Source: Psammoneis japonica
Lineage: Eukaryota
Length of the DNA: 64,000 nt
Reading direction: 5' to 3'
NCBI GenBank assembly: GCA_008632985.1
Contig: QPGO01000194.1
Location: 1 to 64,000, forward strand
Shown: positions 1 through 28,650 of the stretch, piece after piece
Numbering within the stretch: position 1 is the stretch's first letter
Layout of the letters: each line of letters starts with the position of its first letter
Program-made: the position numbers and the translations under genes
The notes under the pieces: generated by a model
Seen by the model: only the letters and a program-made list of their open reading frames with translations
Told to the model about the DNA's origin: nothing
Database searches by the model: none

Positions 1-1550
1 GTGGAAAGAGTTGTCCAGAGTTTGTTTGAATGCTCCATTCTGCATTGTGCGATCCATCGCGCAATGACAACTCCAACAGCTCGGCCACCCACATGAGATC
101 CCTGATTTGGCCTGTTGATGCATGTGTTCAGTGTTGATGGTTGATGTGTCCAATGACAGAGATGTGGTCCAGGAACTGCAAATGGATCATCAAGCAAGGG
201 ACAATCAGGTGTTTCTGTGGATTTGTAAAAATGAGTTGACATTGTGGAAGTCGTTGCGGAATCCACAACAAAGTGCAACATTTAGGAAACCTTTTCCTGG
301 AAGGAAGGGTTGAAATGTTTCGGACAATTGCACGACAACCCTTGCTGCTTGTGTGACTCAGATCTCCTGATGTTGCCACAACACACCATCAATTGCTGCA
401 AGGTTGTCACACAGACTTTCAACAATGACAATGGCCAAGAGTGGTGCCCAGCAACAGGCGGCTTTCAGAGCCCGCAAAATTGAGGAATTGGGGAAGGAAG
501 AATGGAACAGGTGTGATGCAGCGCGAAAGAGAAAGAGCATCAAGAGAAGGAACCGAGATGCTAAAGTGCTTGAGGAGAGAGTCAAGGCGACAGCCATGTT
601 GCCCCAGAGCAGGTTCCGTCTGACTCCGATCTGCACCCCTGCACCAGCAACATTTCAAAGCCCACAGCCAACAAGAACCACAGAAGAGGCAATGAGGACG
701 AGTCGGAGGATGGCAAAATTTGTGAGTGTGAGCCCTCAAGACTCCCCATCAAGGCAAACAACGGATGCGACTGTGATGATGAGTTGTCGGAGGCCAAGGT
801 TTGTGTTTGTGAGTCCTTGGGCAGAGAGGGACACACGGACAGTGAGGGTGCCAGTGTTGGAGAGCTTGGCAGTCGCAACCATGGCTGGAAAAGGGGCAGT
901 TCCATTCGTTTGCCATTGACAGAGGAATTCCAGATGATCCGTCTTGATTTCCATGATGAAGCTGAACTGTGTGCAGTTGGTGCGAAGATTGTCCAAGAGG
1001 CATTTGAAACCCAAGGCAGGCCTTGGCAATGTTCTTGGTCAAGTTGCTGGTGGCTTGACTGACAAAGTTCGCTGGGACCTCCAGTGCATCCTTGATGGTC
1101 ACAACAATTTTGTGCACAACAAGTGGGTGCACCGTTTGGACAACCCACGTGTGCACAAGGAGGTGTTGGATCGTGTCATCCCAAACTGGGAATTTCATGA
1201 CTGCAATTGCCGTTCACCGCCTGAAACAACTGCTTGATGAGAGTCACATGGAGAATGCAATTCTCAAGTGAAAGCTCAGTCTTTGCCAACTTGATGGCAA
1301 AAATGGCCAACCGGGAAAGCGCCGCCACTGGGGATCCCACTGAATTCTCCAGAAAACTCACAACTCGTAACCAAAATTGCACTGAATTTGCGGAATCCTC
1401 TTGCAATTAACAACGTGTGACCAACTTCTTTGTGACCATTTGTTCATTCCATTGAACTTCTCAATTGTGCTCTCTGCTCACTCCTTTTACGTCAAACTGT
1501 CACCAGTGCCTTGTTGCCCCCACCACAACCCACTTTGCTGCACTTTTGGA
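1..1550. repeat. Dispersed repeat family A, copy 1 (empty-site copy, truncated by window start), with decayed + strand ORF remnants
   Basis: Position 1 aligns to 10725. 1-603 matches 10725-11330 and ~607-1550 matches 18173-19146. Differences are dominated by TG/CA/CG swaps. Confidence 0.9.
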
Positions 1551-3697
1551 ACACAAGAGACCACACAGCAAGAAAAAGAGAGAGAGTGGAGCAAGAGGTG
1601 ACAGAGGGCACAGGTGAAGATCAAGCTGACGGGGAGCCATGCAGCAGCTCTCAGTGGCTGCAAGCAAGGCCCACAGAGGTGGAGCTGGACCAAGGAGAGA
1701 AGATGGAAGAAGGGCTCTTTGACAGGTTAAGAGTTCCAAAAGACAGCCCTGCATGTCAGGCAACAAGCTCCATCAAACAATGGAGCTGCAAATGTCAAAT
1801 GAAAAGAGGGCCAAACAGCAGACTGGTCTGCAAGAAAGTCACAGAGACAGAACTTAACTGTGTCAGATTTCCAATGCAGGTGGTGTGTGTTGCATCCTCC
1901 CAATTGTTGCTCCTTCCTGAGGAGATGCTCCCAAAAGCTTTGCTGCAGGGTTCCTTGCAGGGGCGCTCCATTGGCAACAGCACAACACAAGCTGACCAAG
2001 CACATGGCACTGGGACAGACTGGGAACTTGACAACATGCTTGCCCTTGATGCCCCAACAAACAAGCCATGGGGGTGGGCTGCACTCCCAATTGCTCCTTC
2101 CTGAGAAGATGCTCCCAGATGCCAGATGCAATGCATGACAGTTTGGGTGGCCTGCACAGGGCACAAGAAACTGGCTTGTTGGAAGCACCAGCAGCAGATC
2201 ACCAAGCTTTGCTGCAGGGTTCCTTGCAGGGGTGCTCCATTGGCAACAGCACAACACAAGCTGACCAAGCACATGGCGCTGGAACAGACTGTGAATGGCA
2301 AATGGAAAAGCACCTTTAGATGGCAGCCAGAGCAGATCTCCATCCAAGATCTGCCTCTTTCAGCTCTTTCTCACACCAGCACTCATGTCATCACAGTTGT
2401 CAGCACAACTTCTTTTGGCCTTTCCATCATGTTTCTTTGGTTTCATGTTCATTGTGTCACTTTTTTGCATTGCCTGGATGTGGTTTGCAAAATGAAAAAG
2501 CAGAAGACCATGAGCATGTGCTTTGTGCATGGTTGTGCTGGCACCAGCTCATGCACACAGACTGATCTCAAAATTGCAGTCTTTTGCATCACTCTGAAGT
2601 GAGCATGATGGCAGCAACCCTCCCATGCACTCACCTCTGTCATCTGAAGTTGCCACAGTTGTTGCATCACAAGTGCAGCAAATTTGTTTTTCAGCAGAAA
2701 ATCACAAGCCATTTTGGCCAAATTTGAAGACAAAGAGTGGCAGCCAGCCACCCTTAAAAGGAGCTTTCTGAGCTTTTAAAAAACCTCAATGATGCCACAA
2801 AGTCACCACTTGTGTTGACAAATGAACACAACAAACCAAATTGTTCACTTTCCTTGTTCAATTCTGCCTTCTTTTGTTTCAAAGTTCTGCTGTTTTGTGA
2901 GTCATGACCATCTCTGGCAACTGCACCAAAGTGCACAGCTTGACCCAAGAGAGACAAACCATGCTTCTTGATCCAAAAAAAGACAACCCATCAACTGTGC
3001 ACTCTTGGCTGCAATGCCAACCAGCACAATGGTTTGCTGCTTGCACAGCATTTTGCACTTGTGCACAAATTTGGGTCAGTCATGTTGATCTGCCAAAATG
3101 ATGTTTCACTCAATTGCAGCTTTCAATCCACTTTTAAATGCCACACAATGAGCCTCATTGTTGCAATGAGCACCTTGGCTTGAATTTGTCCTTGCACAAC
3201 TCAGGCCATTGTGGGTTTGTCTTTTGCATTGCCTGCCTCTTTGGAACAAGCATGTGAGCCCTTGGTGGCTTGGTCAAATGCTTGTTCATTGGTTTTGGCA
3301 CTCCACTTCTCTTGTCCAATTTTTTCATGTGGAAGCTCCTTGTCACCTTCAGGAACTGTGTGCACCCCCTTCTTCATCAGAAGCTAAAGACTTCTAAACA
3401 GCATCATTTTTCAGCTCATCCTTCAATGCAGAACAGACTGTTTGCACCCAGCATTTTTGCTGCAACTCTTGGGCTCAAAGTTGTCAAAATGAACAGCCAA
3501 ATGAGAGAACATTTTTAAAACCAACCAACATCCATGCCATGGTGGTCATCTTTGGCAAGTTTTTGCATGGGTGAGGGCACTCTGTTGTTCTTTGTGCACT
3601 TTGATGGTGCTGTTCTGACATCATTCAGGATGGGACAGAGCAAGCTTGGGACCACTTGCACCATCAATTGCTCTCCAGTTTCCAGTTTTGTCACACC
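1550..3697. repeat. Dispersed repeat family B, copy 1
   Basis: Colinear with 19801-22267. This copy lacks ~21170-21481 and has an internal duplication ~1935-2010/2204-2290. Confidence 0.85.
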
Positions 3698-4674
3698 TGG
3701 GTTGGTTCTCATTTTCAAGGTGGAGCTGTGAAGATCCACTGTTGCACAGGCTCATTTCAAGTGCTTGTCCCATGCCTTCAGTTGCTCTAGAAGCCAGCCA
3801 CCAGCAGCGATGCTGTCATCCAAGATTTCTCCATGTCCAAGAGTGCAAAGGCATCCCAGTGAGAAAGATTCTTGCCCAATCACTTTAACAAGCATGTTGG
3901 CAGAACAGCCAAGACAGCAGACAAGTCTTTGTCATCTTTGCATTCAGCAAACGTCAACTGGGTGCAATCTTGCATGTTCTGTGGATGTGTTCTGAGCTCT
4001 CCTTGTTCTGCACAAAATGACACACCGCACCCATCTGACTGTCCAGAGCAGTGATCATTTGTTCGTTGGACCATTTGACAGGCTCAATGGCACTGTTCCA
4101 TCAGTGCTGTGGCAAGATGCACTGTGGTTGCAGCAAAATTGACAGCAGTGTGCCAGCACACAGCATGGTTTCTTTTTGGTGCATCTGGTTGGCTGCATCA
4201 TGAAGGTGCAACGTCATGCAGTTGTGTTGATCCAGTCCTTGGCTGACCACTCACTGTCAGAAGATTGAAAAACAAAGCTGAAAAAGAAATCAAAATGTGT
4301 TGATGGACAATGCCAGAGCCATCCGTCACCAGGGGTGACCCAGAGTTGGAGCTCTGGTCATGTGCGGAGAGCCACAAAGGGTGCAAGGCATGGGCTGTGA
4401 GCAAAAACTCTGTGAACTCATGAACACTGCAAAACAACATTGACAAAACAAAGGATCAAGCTTGCTGCAATGTGGCTTGTGTGGTGCTTGTTGTGGGCTT
4501 GTGCACAGCTTCTGCATTGGCCCTCTGATGCAAAAGCAGATTGCAGAAGACAGCCCCTGTTTGTGCATGGGCAGGCACAGACCACTGTCTCTCATTGGTT
4601 CCCAGTGTGTGCCAAACAATCAATGGGTTGATTGCTCATCTCTTTCTGGGCTCTTTGACTGGTTGGTTGTTCTG

Positions 4675-5130
4675 AAAGACAGCACTGCATGTCAGGCAAT
4701 GAGAGTTCCATCAACCAATGGAGCTGCAAACATCAAATGAAAGGAGCGCCAAACAGCAGCCTGGCCTGCAAGACAGTCATCATGCAGACAGAACTTGATG
4801 GTGTCAGATTTCCAATGCAGGTGTGTGACATAAAAAGCACTGCCATGGCTGTCACTCTCTTTGAGTGCAACACCCAACATTTGATGTGCCATTGCAAGTG
4901 GCAGAAAGGGGGGGCAGGGTGCACTGCTTCACCACACAAGTGTCTTGGAGGAACTTGATGACACACTTGCCCTCAAGGCCAGCACCAAACAAGCCAGAGC
5001 AGGGTTGTTTTTGCACTCTTGATGGCTCCTGAGGAGATGCTCTCAAATGCCAGGCAGCATGAGCAGTGGATCACAAAGCATTGCTGCAGGGTTCCTTGCA
5101 GGGGCACTCTGTTGGCAATGGCACAACAAG
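4675..5130. repeat. Partial, more diverged third copy of family B
   Basis: Matches ~20000-20500 (gcatgtcaggcaa...gtgtcagatttccaatgcaggt...gctgcagggttccttgcagggg). Confidence 0.75.
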
Positions 5131-5451
5131 CATGATCAACATCCATGGATGGAAAACCAGGGCACAGGAGCATGGTGAACTTGCTCCATTTTGTTAAAGC
5201 ACATGGAGTGGTTGCAACAAGCATGAGTGCACTTGCTGTCCCACCACTTGAGAAGATTGCTGCAAATCCTGCTTGTTTTGTTGTGAGCCACCTGCAGACA
5301 ATTGGTGATTGCTGCACTGGGGGATGTTTTCAGCTGGCAGCTGTCTGGAAAATCTGTTGCAAAATTTGTGCCAAAAGAGTCTAATGATCAGTGCAACTGG
5401 TGGTTTTGTCCAGTTTTGGTGAACACTGGACAAACTGGATGTCTTTTTTTG

Positions 5452-5960
5452 CACATGCTGCCACCCTGAAGTGAGACAAGAGACCACACAGCAAGGAAAA
5501 AGAGAGTGAGCGGAGCAAGAGGTGACGGAGGGCACAGGTGAAAATGAAACTCATGGGGAGCCATGCAGCAGGTCTCAGTGGCTGCAAGCAAGGCGCACAG
5601 AGGTGAAACTGGACCAAGGAGAGAACATCCATGATGTTCAGCCCTCCCCATTAAAATGTCTTTTAAACCCAGCCCCTGTTGTGGACCCTGAAACACCCAA
5701 AGTGTCATGGTCTGCAATGTTCTTGTGGATGTCCATGACATCCGTGACAGTGACTTTGGGAACTCCATGACATCTGTGACATCACAAACTCAGTGTCAAA
5801 TTAGCTGAGACACCTTTTTTGTTGTGGACTCAAGTTTTTGTGGATTCTGTGACATCCATGATGAAATGGAGTCAGCGACATTGACTGTGTTCAGCACAGC
5901 CCATTGAAATGTCTTGGAAACTCAGCAACTGTTGTGGACTTTGCAACACCCAAACTGTCA
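5452..5960. repeat. ~500-bp module duplicated at ~7897-8422; its first ~150 bp also occur at ~1553 and ~19780
   Basis: acatgctgccaccctgaagtgagacaagagaccacacagcaaggaaaaagagag is shared at 5452 and ~7900, with colinear downstream sequence. Confidence 0.85.
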
Positions 5961-6089
5961 TGGTGTGCCAATGTCCAGCACTCCCCATTAAAATGTCTTG
6001 GAAACCCAGCCACTTTGTGGACTTTGCATCACCCAAACTGTCAAGGCCTCCATGACATTGGTTGTGTCATGGACTCTGTGACATCCGCC

Positions 6090-9000
6090 AGCACTCCAAA
6101 ATGAAACAGCTGAGAAACCTTGCCCTTGTTCCAGACTCTGCAACATCCACAGTGTTGCGGACTCTGTGACATCTGCCCTCACTGCAAAATGAAACAGTTG
6201 AGAAACCTTGTCCTTGTTGCAGACTCTGCAACATCCACAGTGTCATGGAATCCATGACATCCGTGACATCTGGACTCTGCGACATCCGCCCGCAGTCCAA
6301 AATGAAACAGTTGAGAAACCCTGTCCTTGTTGCAGACTCTGCAACATCCACAGTGTCACGGATTCCATGACATCCGTGACGTCTGGACTCTGTGAGATCT
6401 GCCTGCAGTCCAAAATGAAACAGCTGAGAAACCTTGTTCTTGTTGCAGACTCTGCAATGCCCACAGTGTCATGGACTCCATGACATCCACAATGTCATGG
6501 CCTCCATGACATCCACCACACTCCAAAATGAAACAGTTGAGAAACCTTGTCCTTGATGCAGACTCACAGTGTCACAGACTCCATGGCATCTGCCACATCA
6601 TGGCCTCCTTGACATCCACCAAACTCCAAAATGAAACAGTTGAGAAACCTTGTCCTTGTTGCACACTCTGCAACATCCACAGTGAGGAAGACTCCATGAC
6701 ATCCGTGATGTCATGGACTCCACAACATCCACCCATGCTCCAAAATGAAACAGTTGAGAAATCTTGTCTTTGTTGCAGACTCTGCAACATCCACAGTGTC
6801 ACAGAATCTGTGGCATCCATGAGGACATGGACTCCGTGACATCCGCCCGCACTCCAAAATGAAACAGTTGAGAAACCTTTTCCTTGTTGCAGACTCTGTG
6901 ACACCCACAGTGCAATGGAATCCATGATGTCCGTGATGTCATGGACTCCATGACATCTGCCCACACTCCAAAATGAAACAGCTGAGAAACCTTGTCCTTG
7001 TTGCAGACTCTGCAACATCCACAGTGTGGCAGACTCTGTGACATCCGTGACATCATGGACTCTGTGACATCTGCCTGTTCTCCAAAATGAAACAGTTGAG
7101 AAACCTTGTCCTTGTTGCAGACTCTGCAACATCCACAGTGTCATGGAATCCATGACATCCGTGATGACATGGACTCCGTGACATCCGCCCTCACTCTAAA
7201 ATGAATCAGTTGAGAAACCTTGTCCTTGTTGCAGACTCTGCAACACCCACAGTGTCACAGAATCTATGACATCCATGATGTCATGGACTCTGTGACATCC
7301 ATGACTTCATGCACTCCACAACAAAAAAAGTGGAGTCCTTGTTGTGGACTGAGAAACCTTTTCCTTGTTGCAGACTCTGTGACATCCACAGTGCAATGGA
7401 ATCCATGACGTCTGTGATGTCACAGACTCCGTGACATCTGCCCACACTCCAAAATGAAACAGTTGAGAAACCTTGTCCTTGTTGCAGACTCTGCAACATC
7501 CACAGTGAGGTGGGCTCCATGACATCCATGACATCATGGACTCCGCAACATCCACCAATGCTCCAAAATGAAATGGTTGAGAAACCTTGTCCTTGTTGCA
7601 GACTCTGCAACATCCACAGTGCGGCAGACTCTGTGATTTCCGTGACATCATGGATTCTGTGACATCCGCCGGTTCTCCAAAGTGAAATGGCTGAGAAACC
7701 TTTTCCTTGTTGCAGACTCTGCAACATTCACAGTGTCACGGAATCCATGACATCCATGATGTCATGGACTCAATGACATCCACAATGTCATGCACTCCAC
7801 AACAAAACAGTGGAGCCCTTGTTGTGGACTCTGCAACACCAAAAGTGTTGTCTGTTCCATGACATCTGTGATGTCATGGACTCTGTGACATCTGTCCACA
7901 CATGCTGCCACCCTGAAGTGAGACAAGAGACCACACAGCAAGGAAAAAGAGAGAGAGCAGAGCAAGAAGCAACAGAGGGCACAGGTGAAGATGAAGCTCA
8001 CAAGGAGCCATGCAGCAGCTCAAGCAAGGCCCACAGAGGTGGAGCTGGACCAAGGAGAGAACATCCATGATGTTCAGCCCTCCCCATTAAAATGTCTTGG
8101 AAACCCAGCCCCTGTTGTGGACCTTGCAACACCCAAAGTGTCATGGTCTGCAATGTCATGGATTCTGTGAGATCAATGATTTCATGGACTCTGTGACATC
8201 CATGACAGTGACTTCAGGAACTCCATGACATCCGCGACATCACAAACTGAACATCAGATCAGCTGAGACACCTTTTTTGTTCTGGACTCAAGTTTTTGTG
8301 GATTCTGTGACATCCATGATGAAATGGAATCAGCAACATTGATGATGTTCAGCACGGCCCATTAAAATGTCTTGGAAACCCAGCCACTGTTGTGGACTTT
8401 GCAACACCCAAACTGTCTTGGTGCCCCCACTCCAAAATGAAGCAGCTCAGAAACCTTGCCTGTGTTCCAGACTCTGCAACATCCACAGTGTCACAGACTC
8501 TGTGACATCCATGACATCATGGACTCCATGACATCCGCCCTCATTCTCTATGATGAAACAGCTGAGAAACCTTGTCCTTGTTGCAGACTCTGCAACATCC
8601 AGAGTGTCACGGAATCCATGACATCCATGACATCTGGACTCCGTGACATCCGCCCGCAGTCCAAAATGAAACAGTTGAGAGACCTTGTCCTTGTTGCAGA
8701 CTCTGCAACACCCACAGTGTCACAGACTCAGTGACATCTGTGACATCATGGACTTTGTGACATTGGCCCTGGCTCTAAAACGAAACAGCTGAGAAACCTT
8801 GCAGACTCTGCAACATCCACAGTGTCACGGAATCCATGACATCTGTGATGTCTGGACTCTGTGACATCCGCCCACAGTCCAAAAAGAAACAGTTGAGAAA
8901 CCTTGTCCTTGTTGCAAACTCTGCAACACCCACAGTGTCACAGAATCCATGACATCCATGATGTCATGGACTCCGTGACATCCATGACTTCATGCACTCC

Positions 9001-10570
9001 ACAACAAAAAAGTGGAGTCCTTGTTGTGGACTCTGCAACACCCAAAGTGTTGTGGATTCCATGACATCCATGATTTTTTGGACTCTGCGACATCCACCTG
9101 CACTCCAAAATGAAACAGTTGAGAAACCATGTCCTTGTTGCAGACTCTGTAACATCCAAGTTGTTGTGGAGCCTGTGACATCCATGACATCATGGACTCC
9201 ATGACATCCATGATGTTCAGCGCTCCCCATTAAAATGTCTTTGAAACCCAGCCCCTGTTGTTGACTCTGCAACACCCAAACTGTCACAGACTCCATGACA
9301 TCCATGGCATCATGGACTCTGTGACATCCACCTGCACTCCAGAACAAAATGGCTGAGAAAGAACCTTGTCCAACTTTCTGAAACACCTTTTTTGTTGTGG
9401 ACTCAAGTTGTTGTGGATTCTGTGACATCCATGATGTCAATCCATGACACTCATGATGTTCAGCACTCCCCATTGAAATGTCTTGGAATCCCAGCCCCTG
9501 TTGTGGACTCTACAGTGCCCAAACTGTTGTGGACCCCATGACATCTGTGACATCATGGACTCCATGACATCCACCTGCACTCCAAAATAAAATGGCTGAG
9601 AAACCTTGTCCTTGTTGCAGACTCTGCAACATTTGCAGTGTTGCAGACTCTGTGACATCTGCCCTCACTCCAAAATGAAACATCCACAATGTCACGCACT
9701 CCACAACAAAACAGTGGAGCCCTTGTTGTGGACTCTGCAACACCAAAAGTGTTGTCTGTTCCATGACATCTGTGATGTCATGGACTCTGTGACATCCGTC
9801 TGCACTTCACAATGAAACATCTGAGAAACCTTGTCCTTTTTGCAGACTCTGCAACATCCACATTTTGTTCTGGAATCTGTGACATCCATGATGTCACGGA
9901 TCCTGTGACATCAGTGACACCATGGACTTGGTGACATTTGTGACATCACAAACTCCACAAAGAAACAGTTGAAGATTCCATGAAGCACAGTGTCGCGGAT
10001 TCCCTGACATCTGCAATGTCATGGACTCCATGACATCTGGGACATCACACACTCAACAACAAAACAGTTGAGAAACTTTGTTTTGTTGTGGACTCTGCAA
10101 CATCAAAATTTGTTGTGGATTCTGTGACATCCATGATGTGTCATGGTTTCCATGACATCCATGATGTTCAGCGCCCCCATTGAAATGTCTTGGAAACCCA
10201 GCCCCTGTTTTGGACTCTGCAGCCCCCAAAGTGTCATGGATTCCATGACACCCATGATTTCATGGACTCTGCAACATCTGTCCTTGCTTCACAATGAAGC
10301 AGTTGAGAAACCTTGTCCTTGTTGCAGAAAAGTTTGAGAAACCCAGCCCTTGTTGTGGGCTGCCCAACATCTGCAATGTCACAGATGCTGTGACATGATC
10401 TGCAATGTTGTGCAACAAAAGAGCTTGGAAACCTTTTCCTTGTTGCAGATTCTTCATCATCCACATTGTCACAGATTCCATGCCATCCATGATGTCATGG
10501 ACTCCATGACATCCATGACATCACACACTCCACAACCAAGCAGTTGAGAAACCTTGTCCTTGTTGCGGGC
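6090..10570. repeat. Degenerate tandem array, ~114-bp unit built from 9-bp subrepeats and GANTC-centred palindromes
   Basis: ctccaaaatg-type unit starts at 6738, 6852, 6966, 7080, 7194 (period 114). Recurrent tgttgcaga-c-tctgcaaca and tgtcatgga-N-tccatgaca. Confidence 0.92.
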
Positions 10571-10724
10571 TCTGCACTGTTTCTCAATCACACCAACACT
10601 GTGTTTCAATTGTCAGTCAATGTGGTGTTGGGAGACTCATGTGTGCAGCTGTTGGCAGTGTGGCAGAATGGACTCTCTGCTGGCGGCAGCCAGGAACAGA
10701 AAAGGTGCTCTCTGCTGCGGCAGA

Positions 10725-11330
10725 GCAGAAAGAGTTGTCCAGAGTTTGTTTGAATGCACCATTCTGCATCACGCGATCCATCGTGCAATGACAATTCCAA
10801 CAGCTTGGCTGCCCACATGAGATCCCTGATGTGGCCTGTTGATGCATGTGTTCAGTGTTGATGGTTGATGTCTCTAATGACAGAGATGCAGTCCAGGAAC
10901 TGCAAATGGATCATCAAGCAAGGGACAATCAGGTGTTTCTGTGGATTTGTAAAAATGGGCTTGTGTTGCGGAAGTCATTACGGAATCTGCAAAGAGGTGC
11001 AATGTTTGGGGAACCTTTTCCTCGAAGAAAGGGTTGAAATGTTTTGGATGCCCACATGACAACGCTTGCCACTTGTGTGACTCAGATCTCCTGACATTGC
11101 CACAACACACCATCAATTGCTGCAAGGTTTTCACACAGACTTTCAGCAATGACAATGGCCAAGAGCGGTGCCCAGCAACACAGGCAGATTTCAGAGCCCG
11201 CAAAATTGAGGAATTGGGGAAGGAAGAATGGAGCAGGCATGAAGCAGTGCAAAAGAGAGAGAGTGTCGAGAGAAGGAACAGAGATGCCAAGGCACTTGAG
11301 GAGAGAGTCAAGGTGATGGCTGCGTTGCTG
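10725..11330. repeat. Family A copy 2, left part (interrupted by the copia insertion)
   Basis: Aligns with 1-603 and stops at the LTR edge. Confidence 0.9.
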
Positions 11331-17526: not shown

Positions 17527-17970
17527 CCTGTGATAGAGAAAGGGCACAAAGGTCCCGCACCGGGAACATGTGGCTGTCAGTCTGCATGGTCATGATGACT
17601 GCACTTTCTCTGTGTTGTGACAACGGGTTCACACAGCCACCCGACGTCAGGGTGATCAGTCCTGTGTCGTTCATGTCAACCGACATTGTTGAGCACACGC
17701 TCGGGCACATTGCCCAATGCCGCAGTCCCTTCACACCCGTCACACATGTGAGGATAGTGACTGTCTTTGCGAGCATCACCATTGCAAGCTGTTTTTGTGG
17801 ATGTTGTGACAAGTGACATGAGACACATCATCGTGCGCATCAATCCGAATTCTGATGCATCGCGCACAGCTCAGCACCGTTTCTACAGCTGCACGTTCCA
17901 TGCAAACAACACAACAAACAATCGTCCATGACGAATTGCACTCGAAACCATTTCGCTCTGTCTTTTTCGT

Positions 17971-17983
17971 CTTGGCTCTGATG
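17971..17983 (-). other. Putative primer-binding site (initiator tRNA-Met-like)
   Basis: Minus strand reads catcagagccaag 3 nt inside the 5' LTR, resembling the copia tRNA-iMet PBS (TGG)TATCAGAGCC with TA->CA. The TGG is absent. Confidence 0.5.
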
Positions 17984-17986
17984 GAG

Positions 17987-18168
17987 CGAATAAATCTCGA
18001 TGCAACGAAAGAACAAGCACGACACCTTGGGTCTAAATGGGAAGCAGCAACACTGTCAATGCGAACCTAAACCTGATTAGATTGTGAGCGTGTCGCTGCA
18101 GCACCACTCGATCCACATGTCTCAACCAATCACCAATTGTGACATGGCCCTCCATCCAGATTTACTCG
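17987..18168 (-). repeat. 5' LTR (182 bp) with 10-bp terminal inverted repeat
   Basis: Top-strand ends cgaataaatc ... gatttactcg (9/10 inverted match). Confidence 0.92.
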
Positions 18169-18172
18169 GCTG

Positions 18173-19146
18173 GAGCAGGTTCCGTTCGATTCCGATCCGC
18201 ACCCCTGCACCAGCAACATTTCAAAGCCCACAGCCAACAAGAACCACAGAAGAGGCAATGAGGACGAGTTGGAGGATGGCAAAATTTGCAAGTGTGAGCC
18301 CTCAAGACTCACCGCCAAGGTGAACAACGGATGAGACTATGATGGCAAGTTGTCAGAGGCCAAGGTTTGTGTTTGTGAGTCATTGGATGGAAAGGGATGC
18401 ATGGATGGTGAGGATGCGGTGTTGAAGAGCTTGGCAGTTGCAACCATGGCTGGAAATGGGGCAACTCCATTCGTTTGCCATTGACAGAGGAATTCCGGAT
18501 GATCCGTCTTGATTTCCATGATGAAGCTGAGCTGTGTGCAGTTGGTGCAAAGATTGCCCAAGAGGCATTTGAAACCCACCTGCCAAATTTAAAACTGGAG
18601 GCAGGCCTTGGCAATGTTTTGGTCAAGTTGCTGGTGGCTTGACTGACAAAGTTCGCTGGGACTGTCAGCACATCCTTGACGGTTGCAACAATTTTGTGCA
18701 CAACAAGTGGATGCACGGTTTGGACAACCTGTGTGAGTGCAAGGAGGTGTTGGATCAGGTCATTCACGAACTGTGCCAAAGTGAGAATTTTGTGACTGCA
18801 ATCGCGGCGTTCACCACCTGAAACAACTGCTTGATGAGAGTTGCATGGAGAATGCGATGCTCAAGCAAAAGCTCAGCCGTTGCCAACTTGATGGCAAAAA
18901 CAGCCGACCGGGAAAGCGCGCCACAGAAGATCCCATTGAATTCTCTAGAAGACTCGTGGCTCGTAACCAAATTGCGTTGCCTTTGCAGAATCCTCTTGCA
19001 ATTAACAAATGTGACCAACTTCTTTGTGACCATTGGTTCATTCCATTGAACTTCTCAATTGTGCTCTCTGCTCACTCCTTTTAGGTCAAACTGTTGCCAG
19101 TGCCTTGTTGCCCCCACTGCAACCCACTTTGCCGCACTTCTTGGAA
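18173..19146. repeat. Family A copy 2, right part
   Basis: Resumes alignment with ~607-1550 right after the LTR (gagcaggttccgt). Confidence 0.9.
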
Positions 19147-19800
19147 TGAACGGTGCCTTTGGTGGCGCCTCTTTGCCATTTTCTGCGCATCACTGCTCCT
19201 GATGTCACCAAAAATCTAACATCCAACCACATGTTGTTGTGGCACTTTGAAACTTTCAACAATGGCATCTTGATCTCTCCGACCTTTGGTTTGTCTGTTT
19301 TTACCAGAGAGAAAAAGACATGCGTCTCATGAGAATGTGGCAAACACCAGGCTGCATGTGCAATGGAGTGATGCAGACGATCAAACAACTTTTGATCTGG
19401 AAGCAGGAACAGCAACTTGTGAAAAGGAGGCTCCCAAGCAAGTGCACGTGCTGATGCAGGCATCATTGTCCCACTGCAAGATGCAATTCCAAGGTCACGG
19501 CAAGCATGCAAAATCTAAAGCCAATTCCACCTCATGCACTGTGCACAAGTCATGCAAAAACAACTTCATCATCTCGGAGACCTGTTTGTCCTGCTCTCAT
19601 GACTCTTGTTTTCTCATCCAAACACGTTGTTCTCCAGATTGGTTGGAAATTGACAAACTTTTGGGTGACAATTGGAAACCAAGCAAAACAACACTCATGC
19701 ATTCAAAAGTCACTTTCCAGTGGGTAGAGCCAAAGAGCTGACCAATGCCAGGCAACCCACAGCTGGAGCTCCAGCCAGAATGCTGCCACCCCAAAGGGAG

Positions 19801-22267
19801 CCAAGAGACCACACAGCAAGGAAAAAGAGAGAGAGTGGAGCAAGAGGTGACAGAGGGCACAGGTGAAGATCAAGCTGATGGGGAGCCATGCAGCGGCTCT
19901 CAGTGGCTGCAAGCAAGGCCCACAGAGGTGGAGCTGGACCAAGGAGAGAAGATGGACCCAGTCTGGAAGGGCTCTTTGACAGGTTGAGAGTTCCAAGAGA
20001 CAGCCCTGCATGTCAGGCAACAAGCTCCATCAAACAATGGAGCTGCAAATGTCAAATGAAAAGAGATCCAAACAGCGGACTGGCCTGCAAGAAAGTCATG
20101 GAGACAGAACTTGACTGTGTCAGATTTCCAATGCAGGTGGTGTGTGTTGCATCCTCAATGAGCACTCCTGCTTTCAAAAGCTCTGCCATGGCTGTCACTC
20201 TGTTTGAGTGCAGCATCAGACATTTGATGTGCCGCTGCAAGTGGCGGCAAAGGTCAGGGTGCACTGCTTCACACAGGTGTCTTGGGGAACTTGACAACAT
20301 GCTTGCTCCAGAGGCCCCAACAAACAAGCCAGGGGATGTTGCTCCTTCCTGAGGAGATGCTCCTAGATGCCAGATGCAATGCATGACTGTTTGGGTGGCC
20401 TGCAGAGGGCACAAGAAACTAGCTTGTTGGCAGCACCAGCAGCAGATCACCAAGCTTTGCTGCAGGGTTCCTTGCAGGGGCGCTGCACTGGCAACAGCAC
20501 AACACAAGTTGACCAAGCACATGGTGCTGGGACAGACTGTGAATGGCAAATGGAAAAGCACCTTTAGATGGCAGCCTGAGCAGATCTCCATCCAAGATCT
20601 GCCTCTTTCAGCTCTTTTTTGCCAGCACTCATGTCATCACAGTTGTCAGCACAACTCCGCTTGGCCTTTTCATCCTGTGTCTTTGGTTTTGTGTTCACTG
20701 TGTCACTTTTTTGCATTGCCTGGATGTAGTTTGCAAAATGAAAAAGCAGAAGACCGTGAGCATGTGCTTTGTGCATGGTTGTGTTGGCACTGGCTCATGC
20801 ACACAGACTGATCTCAAAATTGCAGTCTTTTGCATTGCTCTGAAGTGAGCATGATGGCAGCAACCCTCCTTTGCACTCACCTCTGTCATCTGAAGTTGTC
20901 ACAGTTGTTGTGTCACAAATGCAGCAAATTTGTTTTTCAGCAGAAAATCACAAGCCATTTTGGCCAAATTTGAACACAAAAAGTGGCAGCCAGCCACCCT
21001 TAAAAGGAGCTTTCTGAGCTTTTAAAAAACCTCAATTTGCCTCAATGATGCCACAAAGTCACCACTTGTGTTAACAAATGAATCTGACAAACCAAGTTGT
21101 TCACTTTCCTTGTTCAATTCTGCCTTCTTTTGTTTCAAGGTTCTGCTGTTTTGTGAGTCATGACCGTCTCCCTCCAGAAAGCTTTGCATTTGAGCACAAC
21201 TTCATCTTGAAACTGGGGTGCCACCACAGGCCAGTCCTGTCTGGCCTTTGTGCAGGACCTTTAAAACCACTTGTGCAAAGCACAACAAAAATTGCACACC
21301 ATGATGAGCACTGCCACCAATGCATTGTCTTGCAGCACTGCACCCATTGCAATGCTGACTGCCAAACTGCACCAACATGCTCTTGACACCTCCAAGCATG
21401 TGGCGAACTTTTCATTTTGTTCAAAGATGAGTGCATCTTTGAGTGTGCTGACACAGTTAAATGGCAGCACTCACAGAACATTTCTGGCAACTGCACCAAA
21501 GTGGACAGCTTGACCCAAGAGAGACAAACCGTGCTTCTTGATCCCAAAAAGACTGCCCATCAACTGTGCACTCTTGGCTGCAATGCCAACCAGCACAATG
21601 GTTTGCTGCTTGCACAGCATTTTGCACTTGTGCATGAATTTGGTCAGTCATGTTGATCTGCCAAAATGATGTCTCACTCAATTGCAGCTTTCAATCCACT
21701 TTTAAATGCTGCACAATGAGCCTCATTGTTGCAATGAGCACCTTGGCTTGAATTTGTCCTTGCACAACTCAGGCCATTGTGAGTTTGTTTTTTGCATTGC
21801 CTGCCTCTTGGAACAAGCATGTGAGCCCTTGGTGGCTAGGCAAATGCTTGTTCAATGGTTTTGGCACTCCACTTCTCTTGTCCAATTTTTTCATGTGGAA
21901 GCTCCTTGTCACCTTCAGGAATTGTGTGCCTCCCCTTCTTCAATGGAAGCTAAAAGACTTCTGAACAGCATTGTTTTTCAGCTCATCCTTCAATGCAGAA
22001 CAGACTGTTTGCACCCAGCATTTTTGCCACAGCTCTTGGGCTCAAAGTTGTCAAAATGAACAGCCAAATGAGAGAACATTTTTAAAACCAACCAACATCC
22101 ATGCCATGGTCATCTTTGGCAAGTTTTTGCATGGGTGAGGGCACTCTGTTGTTGTTCTTTGTGCACTTTGATGGTGCTGTTCTGACATCATTCAGGATGG
22201 GGAAGAGCAAGCTTGGGACCACTTGCACCATCAACTGCTCTCCATTTTTACCAGTTTTGTCACACCT
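19801..22267. repeat. Dispersed repeat family B, copy 2
   Basis: Colinear with 1550-3697. Confidence 0.85.
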
Positions 22268-22949
22268 GCATGTCTGCACCCACATTTGACAGCAGCACTT
22301 TGGGTTGCTCAAAAATGGAGGAGCAGCAAGTTGAGAACAACCCCTGCAAGCAAGCAGTCAAGAGGTGACAGCACCCCCAAACCTTTGTCATTCTTTGCCT
22401 TGTGTGGGTTGGACAACCCAACAATCAGACAGAGGAGAGAGAGAAAAAGAAGAGGGCAAGCACCTTCTCCAATTTCTCATGCAGGCTGTCATCACTGCTG
22501 CATCCTCTCACAGTTGTCCTTTTGCACCTTGCAAAACTGCAGAAGACCAGCAGTCCAGGGCAGAAGAGGAGCAGCAGCAGCAGTGGCAGCAGTTTGGACT
22601 CAATGTGCCCTCAAAGCGAGGCTGAAGTCAATGCTGACAGACATTGGAGACAGGGGGTGCACTCCCTTGTGTCAGACAGACTGGGGTGGACAGCATGGAG
22701 AGATCAGATGATCTCTCTTTTGCTCACTTTCTTTCTCATCTGGCACAAGATTGTCATCTGTCCCAGACATCCATCAGATTGTCCTGATGCCAGCAGTCCG
22801 TGAGGTCATGAGCAGCAGTGTTGTCTTCCTCAACACAACTGTGCCACAATGTTGTTGTGTGATTTGGCAATGTTTCTCTGTTGAAGTCATCATCTTTGCC
22901 ACAGTCATTTTTTTCTTTCTTGGTTTGTGATCACCACGACCACCGCAGA

Positions 22950-24000
22950 ACACATGCCAGCATTCCACGCAGGAATTTGATTTTTTCCCATGCAACCATG
23001 GTCAACAGGACCCCATCCAATTGGCTGAGATGAAGTTGATGCTGGTTGAATTCAACCCTCAGCTTCACTTGCCCAATGCCCATCATTGCCTGGACATCCT
23101 TTGTTCTGACAAGATGCCTGCTCCTGAAGAACTTCTGGATGGATTTGCTCCTCAAGGCCTCAAGAGCAATGCCCCTCCATCATGAGATCATCATGACCTC
23201 ATCATCCCCAAGGCTGCACTGACCAAAGATCTCAAACAGATTGGACCGATTGTGGACAAAGCTCCTCTCTTTGTGGCTGCTCCTGAAGCTTCTCTGATTT
23301 GTCCAAACCATGCCAATCTTCAGAAGGCTGTGATCAAGGCAATTTCAGGTGGTCATGATGCCATGACAGTCTGTGTTGAGACTGTGTTTCTTTTCTTCTG
23401 TCCTGATTTCCAATCTTTTGCATGTTGGGACAATGTGTCTGATGCTCCACATCCAAAGTCATCTCACACCTCAAGTTCTGCACCTCCACTGGCTGCCGCT
23501 GCAGGTGCCACCCCTGAAGATCTGGCCAAGGCCTTGGCCACTCATTCGCCCAGTCTAAAAGAGCATGAGCAGACCATGACCAATGCGTTGAAGAAAGCTG
23601 CTCCTCCTCTGCCTTCTTCTGCACCTTCCACCACAACTGCTTTGACTTCAACAACTTTGACTGGTGCTCTGTGCACTTTCAATCCCAAAGACTCCCCAAG
23701 GATGCACTGGCTCATTGCAGTCAGGATGCTTCTGGCAACCATGATGGATGCACAAAAGCTGCTGTGATTGCCACTGCATCTGCAACCAATCTTTTGCATC
23801 CTCACAAGCTTGTGGCATCCAAGTTGGGTCCAGTTGCTGGGTCCACTGCATGCAACACTGACGCCACTGTTGCATCTCATGTTGCAGATGCACTCGCTGT
23901 GGACATTCAGATGGACCCCATGGATGCTAATTCCTTGAGTGTCAAGTCTGCTGTGTCTGTTGTGGAACATTTCAGCTGAGCCATCTGCAGATGTTGATGC
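22950..24000 (+). pseudogene. Heavily decayed ORF remnant of unknown, probably TE-derived, protein
   Basis: Protein-like helical stretches (ATPEDLAKALATHSPSLKEHEQ) in ORFs 23252-23767 and 23671-23979. No family recognised. Confidence 0.3.
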
Positions 24001-25265
24001 TGGATCCCTTGCAATCCTTGTCAATTGGCAGCACTCCCCGCCAGCGTCCATGCCTGCCTGCTCAAGACATCAAAGTTTTTTGTTTCTGGCCATTTCATTG
24101 TTCTGTGCAAAGATGGTCACACTCACCTCCAGGATGGGCTGCCCTCCATTGCCAAGGTTGCACCCAAGCTGCTTGCCACCTGCATGCCACCATCATCTGA
24201 TGCTTGCGGATGCCACCGGCACTCTGTTGGTTGTCAAGTTGATTCACATTTGGATTTTTTGTTTAGATCATTAGTTTTGGACACATGCTGCCACCATTCC
24301 TTCTGTTGTCCAAACAAGACCAACAGAAGCAGGGCAGCCATGAAAAAGGCCACAGAGTCTTGCTGACTTCTGCTGTCATGTCTCTTTCCTCCGTTGTCAG
24401 GACCATTGTTGCATTCATTTGCACTTTTCATGGCACTCTGGACCTGCCCACCATTGCCAATGATGATCCTTCATTTTGTGATCAAGGGAGAGAGCAATGT
24501 CATGCAGAGGAAGTGTGCAAGATTTACAATCACACCAGCTCTTCCAGTGTGTTGCCTCTTTCCTTTGGCGTCAAGACCATTGTGGTGTTGAGCAGTGTTT
24601 TTCCTGGCACTCCTGACCCATTGACCATCCCCAATGATGCCCCTGTGCTTTTTGATCAAAGGAGGGATTCCTGCAGCACAGAGGAAGCACACAAAGGCTT
24701 TTGAGAATTCAACCTTCAACCAAGACACCTTGCTTGACAATCACATTTTGAATGCTGTGCGATGCTCACCTGCAACACGTCACTGTTCTTCTGATGTTGA
24801 GTGAGCTTGTGATGCATTTTGTTTGTCCAGTGTGTTTTTCAGGGGCAACACAAAATGTGATGGAAGCACTGGCTTGTCAGGCAGGCTGCTGTTGCTTCAT
24901 TTTCACCGCATCATCTGTGCCATGGTGGATTTCCATTTTTGGCCCCATCTCTTGGTGGGGTGAGTTTTGGCGATGGCATGACTTGCCAGAATGTCCCATT
25001 GCGGTCAATTGTTTGTGGATTGATGAAATGATTCTGTGGTGCATGACTTAATTCTCCAGAAGATTTGTTGGGAACTGCCTTTGACATTTTTTGTTGAAGA
25101 CCGATGCCACTGACTGCAGGTTGGGTGCTTTGTTCCTGACACGCTTGTTGCTTGATGGGACGTCATTGTTGGTTGTTGTCATGGTTTGCGGGCCAAGTCT
25201 TTGCCATTCCTTTTGGCCCTTCTCTTTGTTCTGCCATTCTGGTCCTCTTTTTGCTTCAGCTGTTC

Positions 25266-25293
25266 TCTTTCTTTCTTTCTTTCTTTCTTTCTT
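25266..25293 (+). repeat. (TTTC)n microsatellite
   Basis: tctttctttctttctttctttctttctt. Confidence 0.85.
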
Positions 25294-28200
25294 GCCTCAC
25301 AGTTTTCTTTTTGTGGTGTGGAGCTGCACTCTTGGCACACAACTGAGCACACAAAGAGCACATTTTTGCACAATCATTTCGTTGTTGATGACCACTGCAC
25401 CCAAAAATTGCAAGCTCTGACAGGTGATGACAAAATCATCTGGCACTGAAATCTGTGCAGAAAGTCATGCACTGTGGTTTCTTTTTCACCTGGAACTGGA
25501 CAAGCCAGCTGGGGGGACAGCGCCACTGCACATCAGACAACTTGTTGGAACAGCCATTTGACACCCAGATCTCATCAGTTGACAGAGCTGTGCCACTCCT
25601 GTCAGCAAGTCTTATTGTGCCAGCATCACTTGAACTCAAAGAAACCTTGGCAGGGGAGAGCAAGGAGGGGCAGCAGAGTGAGTCAAAGTGAGCAATCCCA
25701 AAATGACATTTGTTCTGCTGCTGCACCATTCTTCTTGTTCACAAAGATGCACTCTGTTTCAACTGCTGTGGGGCCCTGGCAGTGGGCAGGACTTGCAGAT
25801 GTTGACTTTTTCTGTGACCAAAATGCACAGTGGAGAAACGGACAGGCACCTTTTCATCATCCATCCATCCACCAACCCAAAAGCCAGCCTCTTGAAAAAC
25901 AACATGTGAGATGAATGCTGTCTGGATGCACCACCCATGGCATGGTTGGTCATCAATGATCTGCGTTTGACATTTGGGAAACAATCTCAGCAGCTTGATT
26001 GGTTTGAAAAAGCATGCACTGTTCTGCAACCCCTCTTCTGGCTCTCGGCCTTTTTGGCTGTTCAATGCCAAGCAAAGCAACAAGCAACTCATTCCTCAGT
26101 GTTTCACCGGCTCTTAACGTGTTGGTGTGAGCAAACAATTGCTTGCAACTGCCACACAAGATGCAAGGCAAGATCATTGTGCCAACAGAATGACAGCAGA
26201 AGCCTTCCTAAACAAGATTGTTTGACACACAAGGAAAAGAATGAACACAGTCATGAAAACAGAGAAAAGATTGGTTGGGTGTTGCCATGAGCAATCCCAG
26301 AAGATCAATGAACTTCTCCCTTGTGATTTCATTTTGTGGAGTGGCCTTGGGTCTGTTTTTGGACTCGCATCATTTTGCCTTTGGGGTTTTGCAATGCAAA
26401 GAGCCTCTGTCTGCTGTGCTGTGGGGATCTGTGGATCAGCCAGCACTTGCTGCAGCGTGGTGAGCACCAGAGCTTTTTGGGCTGGCTGGATTCATCATTG
26501 GATGGCTGTGCATTGTTCTTGATGCTGCCCTGGGAAGTTCTGAAGAAAACACACAACCCACTCCACCTGAAATGCTGATTTGCATTTTTCACTTTGCTGC
26601 ACAGCACTGGTCAAGTGGTGTGATGAGTTCTGCAGGCATGGATTGTAGTGTGATTTTGGTCATTGTGTCCATCTTGGAGGCAACAGGGTTTGCAGTTTTG
26701 GATGGGATGGTGGCAGGCTTTGTCACCAGCACCACAACTGCTGTTGGTGGTCCATTGATTGAGGTGGGGCTCTTGTCATTTTTTGGTGGACATGGTGGAT
26801 GCCAGGATTTGAACAAGACACAACCAGCTTCTTTCCTCTCTGAATTGTGCCCATCTGCTTTCTCAGCAGACCAACTGCAGGAAACATTGGAAGAAGCATT
26901 TGGAGCCAGTTGTCCATCAAGTCAGAAGCAATGGTTCCAAGAAGGACAACACACCTTGTCCCGCTTGCAATGACTCTTGGTGTGTGGGTTGTCCCAGCTC
27001 CAAACTGTGATGCAAAGGGCCACCACGTGCTGCTCATGGTTGCACCGTCAAGTGAAATTGCTGCAGCGGGCAAGGATTTGTGATTCATTGGAATGTGCCT
27101 TGCATGCCAGACTGATGAACACAGATGTTCTCAAGATCTTAAAGAAGACCAGTCAAGAGAAGCGCAGCATTGACTCTGTGCGGGCTTGGCATTTGGAAAA
27201 TGCAAATGAGATGGGCTCACCATGGATGTGGCATTGTGTTGAGTGCTGTCTGGGTGGACCAAAGGCAGGCACAACATGTTCATTGCCAAACACAACAATG
27301 GTTGTCAGAAAGCTGGAGCCAAAACACCAGACAAAAAGCCAGATGATGACCTGGCAATCTTGATGCATTCCAGCCCCAGGTGGATTTTGTGTTGCATGTG
27401 GGCTCACAAAATTCTGTGTGCCAGCTCCACAGCTCATGTGTTGAGCAACAAACACATGTGTCTTTGACATGTGAATGTGTGAATGAGTTTGTGTGGGCAA
27501 CTGGGCCTCTTGATGCTCAAAGTTTTTGATTGAAGCTGTGCCTGCCTCACACGATTTCCAAAACATTGGAGAATCGCACTGTGTGAAAAAAGGTCAAAAG
27601 TTGTTGAGTGGGTGGCCCAACAATTGCACTGCAAAATGACACAAGATGCCACCAAAGTGATGGTCCAATCTCACAGCCCAGCAGTGCAAGGTCCCACCCA
27701 GAGCTGGAGCACATGTCTCCAGCACATGGTTGGCAATGTGAGGCTTGTCATTTGCAGTGGTGTCAACACTCTCACAGGGTGCACCGGAGGTGTGGGCAGC
27801 TGGCGCGGTGTTGCTGGGCAAAGGTGCAACAGCACTTTAAATTGGGTTTGGCTTTTTTGTCTTTGATGTGACAACAGCTCCATGGGAAGAGTGAAGATCC
27901 ACTCCATGCCCACCAAAATGTTGGAACATGAAGAGCACACACGTCTGGAAAGCAATGGCGGACAGTGGGTCCAGACAGGGATCAACGGCCAAGGAAGATG
28001 ATGAGACAGATCCAGGGGAAAAGAGCACTGAGAATGATGCAACTGATGGAACTGTGGTCAGGAGTGAAAACAAGAACAATGAGAATGAGAGTGTTCTTGA
28101 TGGCGGGCAAAAGAATGAGCCAGAAGAGGAAATGAGCAGGGGGTCAAATCACACTCTGAGACAGCTGTCAACTCTGGCACCCATTAGATCATTCTGCATC

Positions 28201-28650
28201 TTTCAAGGGAGCTCTATGATTTTGAAAATCCAGACCCAAGGCACAGAAATGGCTGTTTCAACACAATCACTTAGAAACACCACAGCCATGGGAGAAGACA
28301 GAGTGGCATGAAGGCACCGGCATTACATCATGTACAAGTACCCAAGGCCCATGGCGACTGAAGATGGTGGAGGGCACGGGGCCAGCTGCGAGGTCCTCTC
28401 CTTGCTGGCTTACAGTCTTGGCTACAAGGACCACAGAGTGTCAATGACACATGTGATTGTTTTCGACCGCCGAGCTCCAACCTTGTTATCAGAAACTCAA
28501 TTCTCAGAAGAAATTCGAATAAGTCTTAGGTTCGAGTCGGCAGTACAAAAGCAGAAATCACTTTGTAAACGGCTCAGCTATAATACATTTTAAACATTAT
28601 GGAGCTACGTCTTTCTCGATTAATTGAGCAATCCATCATCTTGCGCATTT

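Follow-up and report, generated by a model that had tools for sequence, protein, structure and literature searches.

Targeted conversion of TpA to TpG and CpA in transposons, repeats and satellite DNA of a diatom-like genome

The dinucleotide 5'-TpA-3' (TA in the counts below) has almost vanished from the repeats, and is kept in the genes, of a 64-kb stretch of DNA from Psammoneis japonica (positions 1 to 64,000 of contig QPGO01000194.1, assembly GCA_008632985.1), referred to here in its entirety as the window. A targeted, TpA-specific process has changed A:T pairs to G:C in the DNA in place, on both strands and within the confines of selfish DNA. Our preferred reading, which we consider likely, is that of an in-place change of TpA to TpG or CpA that strikes transposons, a satellite array and a small orphan island, spares the genes, and is of the same kind as the hypermutation described in Bigelowiella natans (Mettrop et al., bioRxiv 10.64898/2026.01.13.699255).

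Expected TA counts were derived from base composition and expressed for each region as observed over expected (o/e), with the gene region 28321-61544 as internal control and o/e baseline. Positions 1-1500 hold 6 TA against 98 expected; the count of six had been given by an earlier reading of the letters without database searches (the sequence-only reading) and is exact. Over 1-28320 the count is 137 against 1838 (o/e 0.07), and 200 mononucleotide shuffles of that region gave a mean of 1837, a standard deviation of 34 and a minimum of 1752. The same o/e of 0.07 is found in 61545-64000 (11 TA against 156 expected), with a CpG o/e of 0.09. The near-absence of TA claimed for both blocks of repeats therefore stands. 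The gene region has 1302 TA against 2272 expected (o/e 0.57) and a CpG o/e of 1.03. The same reading had called TA ordinary in these genes, which is right for the region as a whole and wrong for a TA-free unit at 51309-52168. In 2-kb bins, TA o/e is 0.01-0.14 throughout 1-28000 and 0.43-0.70 among the genes.

The passage from one regime to the other is abrupt. Successive 250-bp bins of 27001-28750 contain 1, 0, 0, 1, 2, 7 and 15 TA, and those of 61251-62000 contain 13, 2 and 0, which places the borders of the TA-poor DNA at 28270-28320 and 61503-61545, sharp to about 50 bp. Repeat depth in a public read set of the same organism (run X1, whose contigs cover 11001-31000) ends at the same place as the border near 28320, and the claimed restriction to repeats is thereby borne out. 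TA is lost in selfish or foreign DNA only and kept, at the level given above, in the adjoining genes. The targets are mostly repeats; one TA-poor stretch, 25303-26996, lies at single-copy k-mer depth.

The loss is specific for TpA. In the repeat bins AA, TT and AT have o/e values of 0.73-1.33, none of the three being depleted (AA alone, 1.0-1.3), and GC content is 0.49 in the repeats against 0.48 in the genes, values that leave no room for a general drive from AT to GC. GC-biased gene conversion was rejected, as TpA alone is lost among the AT dinucleotides. Measured against the gene-region baseline, 1-28320 falls short by about 911 TA and about 1139 CG, 2050 in all, and TG and CA together are in excess by about 2197. 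Since the deficit approximates the excess and neither AA, TT and AT nor GC content has moved, both self-complementary pyrimidine-purine (YpR) steps have drained into TG and CA. CpG decay supplies about half of the TG/CA excess, a parallel loss that the sequence-only reading had passed over.

The direction of the change can be followed in a Ty1/copia retrotransposon flanked by long terminal repeats (LTRs). Its reading frame (11677-17589) extends over 1971 codons with no frameshift and three internal stops (2 TGA, 1 TAG); it matches RVT_2 and has 570 representative homologues at E<=1e-30. Pfam searches of its gag and integrase open reading frames (ORFs) gave nothing credible, only one chance-level match (E about 1e-3). 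The element has a TA o/e of 0.16, a CpG o/e of 0.85 and a summed contig depth of about 1400-2240, where single-copy DNA has about 56. Tyrosine makes up 0.41% of its residues, compared with 3.09% in host ORFs.

Because tyrosine codons (TAY) contain TA, the conserved tyrosine columns of homologues report TA loss. In the reverse transcriptase (RT)/RNase H ORF, aligned with 66 homologues, 3 of 13 such columns are kept, 6 have become TGY (Cys), 3 CAY (His) and 1 ATG, and the other conserved residues have been retained (D 16/16, E 9/9, G 18/18, R 13/13, H 6/6, N 5/5). Across the whole polyprotein, compared with 20 full-length homologues, 29 tyrosine columns give 5 kept, 11 Cys, 6 His and 7 other residues; 17 of the 24 replacements are thus one-step TGY or CAY derivatives. 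Val to Ala (8) and Ile to Thr (5) are also frequent, as expected from GTA and ATA. When each of the 20 homologues was left out in turn as a control, 59-88% of its conserved tyrosines were kept, and two Cys replacements were seen among them all. Elsewhere the element keeps 431 of 597 conserved non-tyrosine columns (0.72), within the homologue range of 0.56-0.82. It is a normal member of its family apart from its rewritten TA-containing codons.

Nor is the family TA-poor by nature, since metagenomic relatives have ordinary TA: among 80 of them TA o/e is 0.30-1.05, mostly 0.6-0.9, and 79 of the 80 are ordinary. The tyrosine codons, their controls, these relatives and the mass balance all show that ancestors carrying TA underwent transitions at TpA that produced TpG or CpA. 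This upholds the directional change proposed from the letters alone and disposes of a TA-free family consensus, which that proposal had named as fatal to itself. The repeats might still be supposed to have been TA-poor from the start, through the composition of the family or donor, or to have lost TA by selection, and TA is indeed under-represented everywhere, with 0.57 in the host. This supposition deserves next to no credence: conserved tyrosine codons are replaced by one-step TG/CA derivatives, the copia relatives carry ordinary TA, the non-coding satellite and LTRs are affected equally, and residual TA persists at satellite columns polymorphic for CA and TG.

That the process acts on genomic DNA rather than on RNA, as was first proposed from the letters alone, follows from the satellite and from LTRs altered after insertion. 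Among 43 satellite monomers, columns 17, 95, 100 and 112 mix CA and TG with a few TA (CA/TG/TA 23/12/1 in column 17 and 26/8/1 in column 112), and columns 10, 26, 51 and 70 mix CA, TG and CG (15/13/10 in column 70). The residual TA or CG beside CA and TG means that TA and CG ancestors both decayed after amplification of the array. The LTRs of one element are expected to be identical at insertion, and those of the copia element are now identical at 177 of 197 positions; they differ by 3 TG/CA swaps, 3 changes between TA and TG/CA, 5 between CG and TG/CA, 2 other transitions and 4 transversions.

Copies of an unclassified repeat, called X, carry the same signature. Reciprocal TG/CA swaps, exemplified in the sequence-only reading by gtgg at 1-4 and gcag at 10725-10728 (both present as claimed), are the commonest dinucleotide difference between copies, at 52 per about 3840 aligned bases. 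Comparison of the four X segments gave 49 swaps, 44 changes between CG and TG/CA, 13 between TA and TG/CA, 86 other transitions and 85 transversions. Because CG can also give rise to swaps, a swap alone is no proof of a TA ancestor. A runs test on the 49 swaps (P = 0.16) revealed no long one-strand runs, and Cys and His outcomes are interspersed along the copia tyrosine columns without long tracts. Long one-strand tracts were rejected on both counts. Such interspersion of two-strand outcomes points to single-site events and argues against processive one-strand tracts as well as against editing of one RNA strand. As a separate observation, the 49 swaps have an orientation bias, copy 1 carrying CA in 33 and TG in 16 (4-3699 against 10728-22268).

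These data bear directly on editing at the RNA level, in which adenosines of transposon transcripts would be changed to inosine with a preference for UA and the changes fixed by reverse transcription. Retroelement copies are affected, as it would predict, and a preference for a 5' U is typical of ADAR-type editing (10.64898/2026.01.13.699255). We nonetheless judge it highly improbable. The tandem satellite, which has no RNA replication, is stripped to the same extent and its monomers vary; the LTRs diverged by swaps after insertion; both strands are altered in the coding frame (11 TGY against 6 CAY); and the borders match the ends of repeats, not transcript units. The changes are not limited to A to G on the transcribed strand of retroelements, the pattern of an ADAR-like system.

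Decay of CpG accompanies the loss of TpA in part of the repeats only. CpG o/e is 0.36 over 1-28320 and 0.03-0.44 in the older repeats, where, together with the satellite columns mixing CG, TG and CA, it attests to CpG decay; this explains the CpG part of the deficit and no more. Diatom transposons in general are described as CpG-methylated. CpG is near intact at two places where TA is lost, namely the copia element (CpG 0.85, TA 0.16) and the island at 51309-52168 (CpG 0.97, TA 0.02). Since these two lack TA and have kept CpG, and the older repeats lack both, TA loss came first and proceeds faster; CpG decay is separate from TpA loss and slower. At the TA level of the host the island would hold 29.3 TA; it holds 1 (P = 5.6e-12), and its TG and CA o/e are 1.34 and 1.27. 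Its ORF (51438-52103) matched no Pfam family and had no homologue at E<=0.01 within 122-389 amino acids, and the island may be a small foreign gene struck by the same process. The speed of TpA loss can be approached through the copia element, in which the fitted TA loss exponent is 1.72 per site and LTR differences outside YpR steps amount to 6 of 197 (about 3%). By inference, the rate per base at TpA would be of the order of 50-fold the background, an upper estimate if part of the TA loss predates insertion.

A process without any dedicated editor can also be envisaged. Error-prone repair by a polymerase-eta-like enzyme at T:G or U:G mismatches in methylated repeats would misinsert G opposite T at TA, making TpA loss a by-product of CpG deamination and repair. 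Polymerase eta favours WA motifs and produces A to G changes; CpG decay and TpA loss do occur together in the older repeats, and changes between CG and TG/CA are numerous among copy differences. This explanation is nevertheless very unlikely, as the copia element and the island are without TA yet near intact in CpG, AA is not depleted, and the changes at former TA are transitions (Cys or His in 17 of the 24 tyrosine replacements). In B. natans, too, the preprint reports that all 231 of 231 events fell on TpA and that 230 were transitions (10.64898/2026.01.13.699255).

The few TA that survive are not a random sample. Among them are TTAA (41), CTAA/TTAG (40), GTAA/TTAC (23), GTAC (3), ATAC/GTAT (2) and ATAT (1). 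A constant-rate model is rejected (P about 1e-35). With the genes as baseline, a per-strand model, in which the two strands contribute independently and the rate varies with the 3' neighbour of the A, accounts for the ten classes (deviance 6.45, 6 degrees of freedom, P = 0.37) and yields rates of 2.34 for T, 1.78 for C, 0.84 for G and 0.16 for A. With a baseline drawn from 77 metagenomic relatives the deviance is 8.37 (P = 0.21) and the ranking is unchanged. A symmetric duplex model fits the pooled data worse (P = 0.001 with the gene baseline, 0.007 with the 77 relatives). The nucleotide that follows the A thus governs how readily TpA is lost (T > C > G >> A), and TTAA escapes. With T as the target, the same rule would be written 5'-[A>G>C>>T]-T-A. 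In the main text of the B. natans preprint, a term search revealed no discussion of flanking context (10.64898/2026.01.13.699255).

Under the preferred reading, A:T is changed to G:C at either base pair of 5'-TpA-3', giving TpG or CpA, and the agent would be a strand-specific base-modifying enzyme that reads the trinucleotide on one strand. The likeliest candidate would be a DNA adenine deaminase producing hypoxanthine, read as G, within a predicted motif 5'-T-A-N where N is T > C > G >> A, and presumably directed to silenced or foreign chromatin. Mobile DNA would be irreversibly crippled by missense changes of Tyr to Cys or His, Val to Ala and Ile to Thr or Met, and TATA-type and other TA-bearing signals would probably be lost too. 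Unlike repeat-induced point mutation (RIP) of fungi, such a process would create neither stop codons nor AT-rich isochores. Over six frames of 1-28300 there are 1357 TGA, 141 TAA and 70 TAG; the gene block has 563 TAA and 561 TAG, and TGA is unchanged between repeats and genes. With TAA and TAG depleted and TGA unchanged, inactivation would proceed by missense and loss of signals, not by nonsense codons. The scarcity of stops other than TGA also opens long spurious ORFs in the TA-free repeats, 39 of at least 130 codons on both strands of 1-28300 outside the copia element, in which gene callers would be expected to over-predict.

The same targeted process could have thymine as its chemical target. 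A thymine modified in silenced DNA, for instance oxidised or alkylated, by a TET/JBP-type or other enzyme would pair with G and give T to C changes, and all the sequence evidence is symmetric in this respect, TpA to CpA on one strand being TpA to TpG on the other. The same point about strands is made in the B. natans preprint (10.64898/2026.01.13.699255). Adenine deamination has precedents in reports of DNA editing by ADAT2 (PMC10354150), and a thymine target is on balance unlikely. Our preference for adenine also reflects the fact that, among the enzymes familiar to us, we know of none giving clean T to C transitions in DNA.

We considered whether the pattern might be an artefact, either a modified base misread in repeat DNA or a base-calling error at TA-containing k-mers. 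The window is a draft with a gap of N between exact duplicates, and no sequencing platform is recorded for the supporting run X1. In that run, a 1740-nt contig on TA-poor 25303-26996 lies at a single-copy depth of about 56-58 with few differences, and a 4048-nt contig, also at single-copy depth and with 6 other letters, crosses the border over 27822-31000. Run X1 depth reaches 4256 in the repeats and drops to 56 from 28343 onward. Differences from other genomic copies in X1 comprise, genome-wide, 475 transitions and 72 transversions. The bridging of the repeat/gene border at single-copy depth led us to reject a block of foreign contaminant DNA. As X1 contigs reproduce TA-poor single-copy stretches at full depth, a base-calling artefact, another outcome named at the outset as destructive of the proposal, is excluded. 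A symmetric misread would moreover predict half-depth, strand-coherent TG-only and CA-only versions, and TG and CA are interspersed instead. Tyrosine-free copia fragments are present in public protein sets, and a stripped metagenomic locus has lost its tyrosines at different codons. We accordingly regard an artefact of sequencing or assembly as scarcely conceivable.

The fragments just mentioned extend the footprint beyond the window. Two proteins among the 150 homologues listed, P0099 (374 amino acids) and P0132 (380 amino acids), have no tyrosine and raised Cys and His. The metagenomic locus, L036, is 72% identical in nucleotides to 11885-12352 and over its first 500 bases has o/e values of 0.07 for TA and 0.89 for CpG. 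Its RT/RNase H piece of 229 residues (L036:1-700) contains 0 Tyr, 9 Cys and 9 His, and it has Cys at sites where the copia element of the window still has Tyr. These three stripped sequences show the process at work in other copia lineages or other genomes.

Several observations weigh against our preferred reading. The evidence comes from one 64-kb window, and run X1 may be the source data of the assembly itself, its platform being unrecorded. TG/CA swaps have either CG or TA ancestors, which in the older repeats are inseparable. Among 40 of the 554 rows with other letters in X1, 17 are changes between CG and TG/CA and 2 involve TA, and 6 further rows of those 40 form 3 TG/CA swap pairs. Changes between CG and TG/CA being so common among copy differences, CpG decay must also be ongoing. 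The per-strand and symmetric models are inseparable in the copia element alone (7.87 against 8.54) and in the older repeats alone (6.52 against 8.21), and the per-strand preference depends on the baselines assumed. A to G and T to C are indistinguishable in duplex sequence. The order of 3' neighbours, with T the best, is unlike any context known to us for ADAR or for TadA/ADAT in anticodon loops. Only 1 of the 80 environmental relatives, L036, is stripped, and with the other 79 unaffected the process is not general in diatom-like genomes.

The features of the window are given in Table 1. Repeat X copy 1 aligns with 10728-11316 and 18173-22268 at 86-94% identity, the second copy being split by the copia element. 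At the insertion site, copy 2 is without 16 nt of copy 1 (around 593-608), and comparison of 11285-11316 and 18170-18205 with 570-630 gave no clear target-site duplication. In run X1 one contig passes directly from 11313 to 18173 and reads as an empty site; X copies without the insertion must therefore exist elsewhere. The repeats of 22269-28320 have no further copy inside the 64-kb window, and 34 ORFs from the non-copia repeats matched no Pfam family. Short inverted repeats (gtttgagaca and tgtctcaaac) are clustered at the right border, 61445-61565, and may be the terminal structure of an element starting there.

Table 1. Features of the 64-kb window and their dinucleotide composition
Feature	Position	Strand	Description	Composition or basis
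Unclassified repeat X, copy 1	1-5887			TA o/e 0.05-0.06, CpG o/e 0.03-0.34
Satellite array	5888-10576		Units of 84-114 nt, higher-order periods of 218-481 nt (TRF)	TA o/e 0.01-0.06
Repeat X copy 2, left part	10728-11316		Interrupted by copia element; 88% identical to 4-590	13 TG/CA swaps
Ty1/copia LTR retrotransposon	11317-18169	minus	LTRs 11317-11513 and 17973-18169; inserted in X copy 2	
Repeat X copy 2, right part	18173-22268		Aligns with 607-3699, 86-94% identity	TA o/e 0.08-0.11
Further unclassified TA-poor repeats	22269-28320		Sharp border near 28270-28320	TA o/e 0.03-0.04
Ordinary host genes	28321-61544		HisH/HisF-type, SDR, lactonase, Suv3 helicase, RING, transporter, DDHD, two GSTs, PH-START-EDR2_C	Pfam
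TA-free island	51309-52168	+	Orphan ORF 51438-52103	
Second TA-poor and CpG-poor repeat block	61545-64000		Continues beyond window end; border 61503-61545	

The host genes are ordinary, and all their named relatives are diatoms, with best identities of 54-61%. On this basis the window is read as nuclear DNA of a diatom-like stramenopile without a near sequenced relative in the databases used. Two paralogous GST genes (GST_N_2/GST_C_2), at 52813-53766 (-) and 60229-61203 (+), flank the PH-START-EDR2_C gene. The 58 bases of N at 57654-57711 stand between exact 249-nt copies (57367-57615 and 57712-57960); gap and duplicates together, situated where that gene has its 3' end, suggest an artefact of scaffolding. 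In the HisH/HisF-type gene, a contig from another run, X2, whose record says 'DNA?', lacks 83 nt with GT..AG ends (30378-30460), from which we conclude that X2 is cDNA-like and the segment an intron. None of the listed data sets that contain the sequence is recorded as RNA. Run X2 covers 28343-31000 and next to none of the repeats, and offers no basis for calling the repeats either expressed or silent.

The presence of this footprint in a diatom-like genome, where it is more complete and lies on transposons and satellite DNA, suggests a wider eukaryotic genome defence and not the curiosity of one species. Going further, diatoms and chlorarachniophytes might share, or might each have evolved, a natural DNA adenine base editor: a strand-specific deaminase acting at 5'-T-A-[T/C/G]-3' in foreign or silenced chromatin, and amounting to an immunity common to the whole SAR (stramenopiles, alveolates and Rhizaria) group. 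We advance this tentatively and would not call it probable. If true, TpA would be erased, in the direction opposite to that of RIP, from viral inserts and stray foreign genes as well as from transposons and satellites, and the enzyme responsible would be the first A-to-G editor of chromosomal DNA found naturally in a eukaryote. Should it prove to be a DNA adenine deaminase, it would also be relevant to base-editing work. The window places several constraints on any such enzyme. It would act on one strand at a time, read the 3' neighbour with the preference T > C > G >> A while sparing TTAA, operate independently of and faster than CpG decay, and stop no more than about 50 bp from the ends of repeats. 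On the practical side, tyrosine-free 'proteins' born of TpA erasure are already in public databases (P0099, P0132), and dating by LTR divergence will overestimate the age of TpA-stripped elements.

The core of the sequence-only reading stands. Its statement that it knew of no described system of this kind is superseded by the B. natans preprint (10.64898/2026.01.13.699255), which reports the same conversion of TpA to TpG or CpA as a hypermutation of integrated viral DNA in mutation-accumulation lines. The present case is therefore that of a second lineage and no first description. According to the preprint, 231 of 302 nuclear mutations fell in two viral inserts, an integrated nucleocytoplasmic large DNA virus (NCLDV) and a virophage region, and 230 of the 231 were A to G or T to C, all on TpA. 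They arose in some lines only, at a rate of about 6e-7 per site per generation. Clusters depleted in TpA and enriched in CpA and TpG were also described, reverse-transcriptase and DDE domains being enriched among TpA-depleted coding sequences. Its authors propose adenine deamination and advance an ADAT2-like protein as a candidate only. Our literature search returned TpA hypermutation in this preprint alone and no report of TpA loss in diatoms; one further paper (PMC9258296) touches on diatoms and on hypermutation, in contexts that have no bearing here. A lead towards an enzyme, and nothing further, is offered by CDD/CDA-like deaminases specific to stramenopiles, in which the deaminase is fused to SAM and Tudor domains (Iyer et al. 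2011, PMC3239186). DNA editing by ADAT2 has been reported for amphioxus BjADAT2 (PMC10354150).

Several known systems share part of these properties. With deamination of 5-methylcytosine the window has in common the passage of CpG to TG/CA, for which that decay accounts in the older repeats; it cannot remove TpA, and TA is lost here with CpG intact in the copia element and the island. Fungal RIP is likewise an irreversible hypermutation of repeats and selfish DNA by transitions, with a dinucleotide preference and a compositional footprint that marks blocks of repeats. RIP, which is triggered by duplication of a sequence, however changes C:G to T:A, mostly at CpA, and creates TpA, AT-rich DNA and stop codons (PMC2621366), whereas here TpA is destroyed, to 7% of expectation, GC content is unchanged (0.49 against 0.48) and TAA and TAG stops are removed; the C to T and G to A changes that raise TpA and AT are thus not what the window displays. 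APOBEC3 on cDNA, ADAR on double-stranded RNA, with its preference for a 5' U (as stated in 10.64898/2026.01.13.699255), and ADAT2/3 all exemplify enzymatic deamination at a short motif aimed at selfish nucleic acids. They work on replication intermediates or RNA, and on one strand, in contrast to the resident chromosomal DNA, satellite included, that has been altered here on both strands.

The closest system is that of B. natans. As reported in the preprint (10.64898/2026.01.13.699255), it shares with the window the transitions from TpA to TpG or CpA, their occurrence on both strands, a local action with normal mutation elsewhere, and a long-term footprint, depleted in TpA and enriched in CpA and TpG, on sequences bearing reverse transcriptase. 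The hosts differ, a rhizarian there and a diatom-like stramenopile here, as do the targets, which are giant-virus and virophage inserts in B. natans and an LTR retrotransposon, unclassified repeats, a satellite and an orphan gene in the window. So does the depth of the footprint, with a Rho of 0.45 in the NCLDV region of B. natans and a TA o/e of 0.07 here. A de novo rate, raised about 1000-fold, was measured in B. natans, compared with our indirect estimate of about 50-fold from the copia element. Finally, CpG decay proceeds alongside TpA loss in the older repeats of the window, and the dependence on the 3' neighbour (T > C > G >> A, with TTAA spared) is described here.

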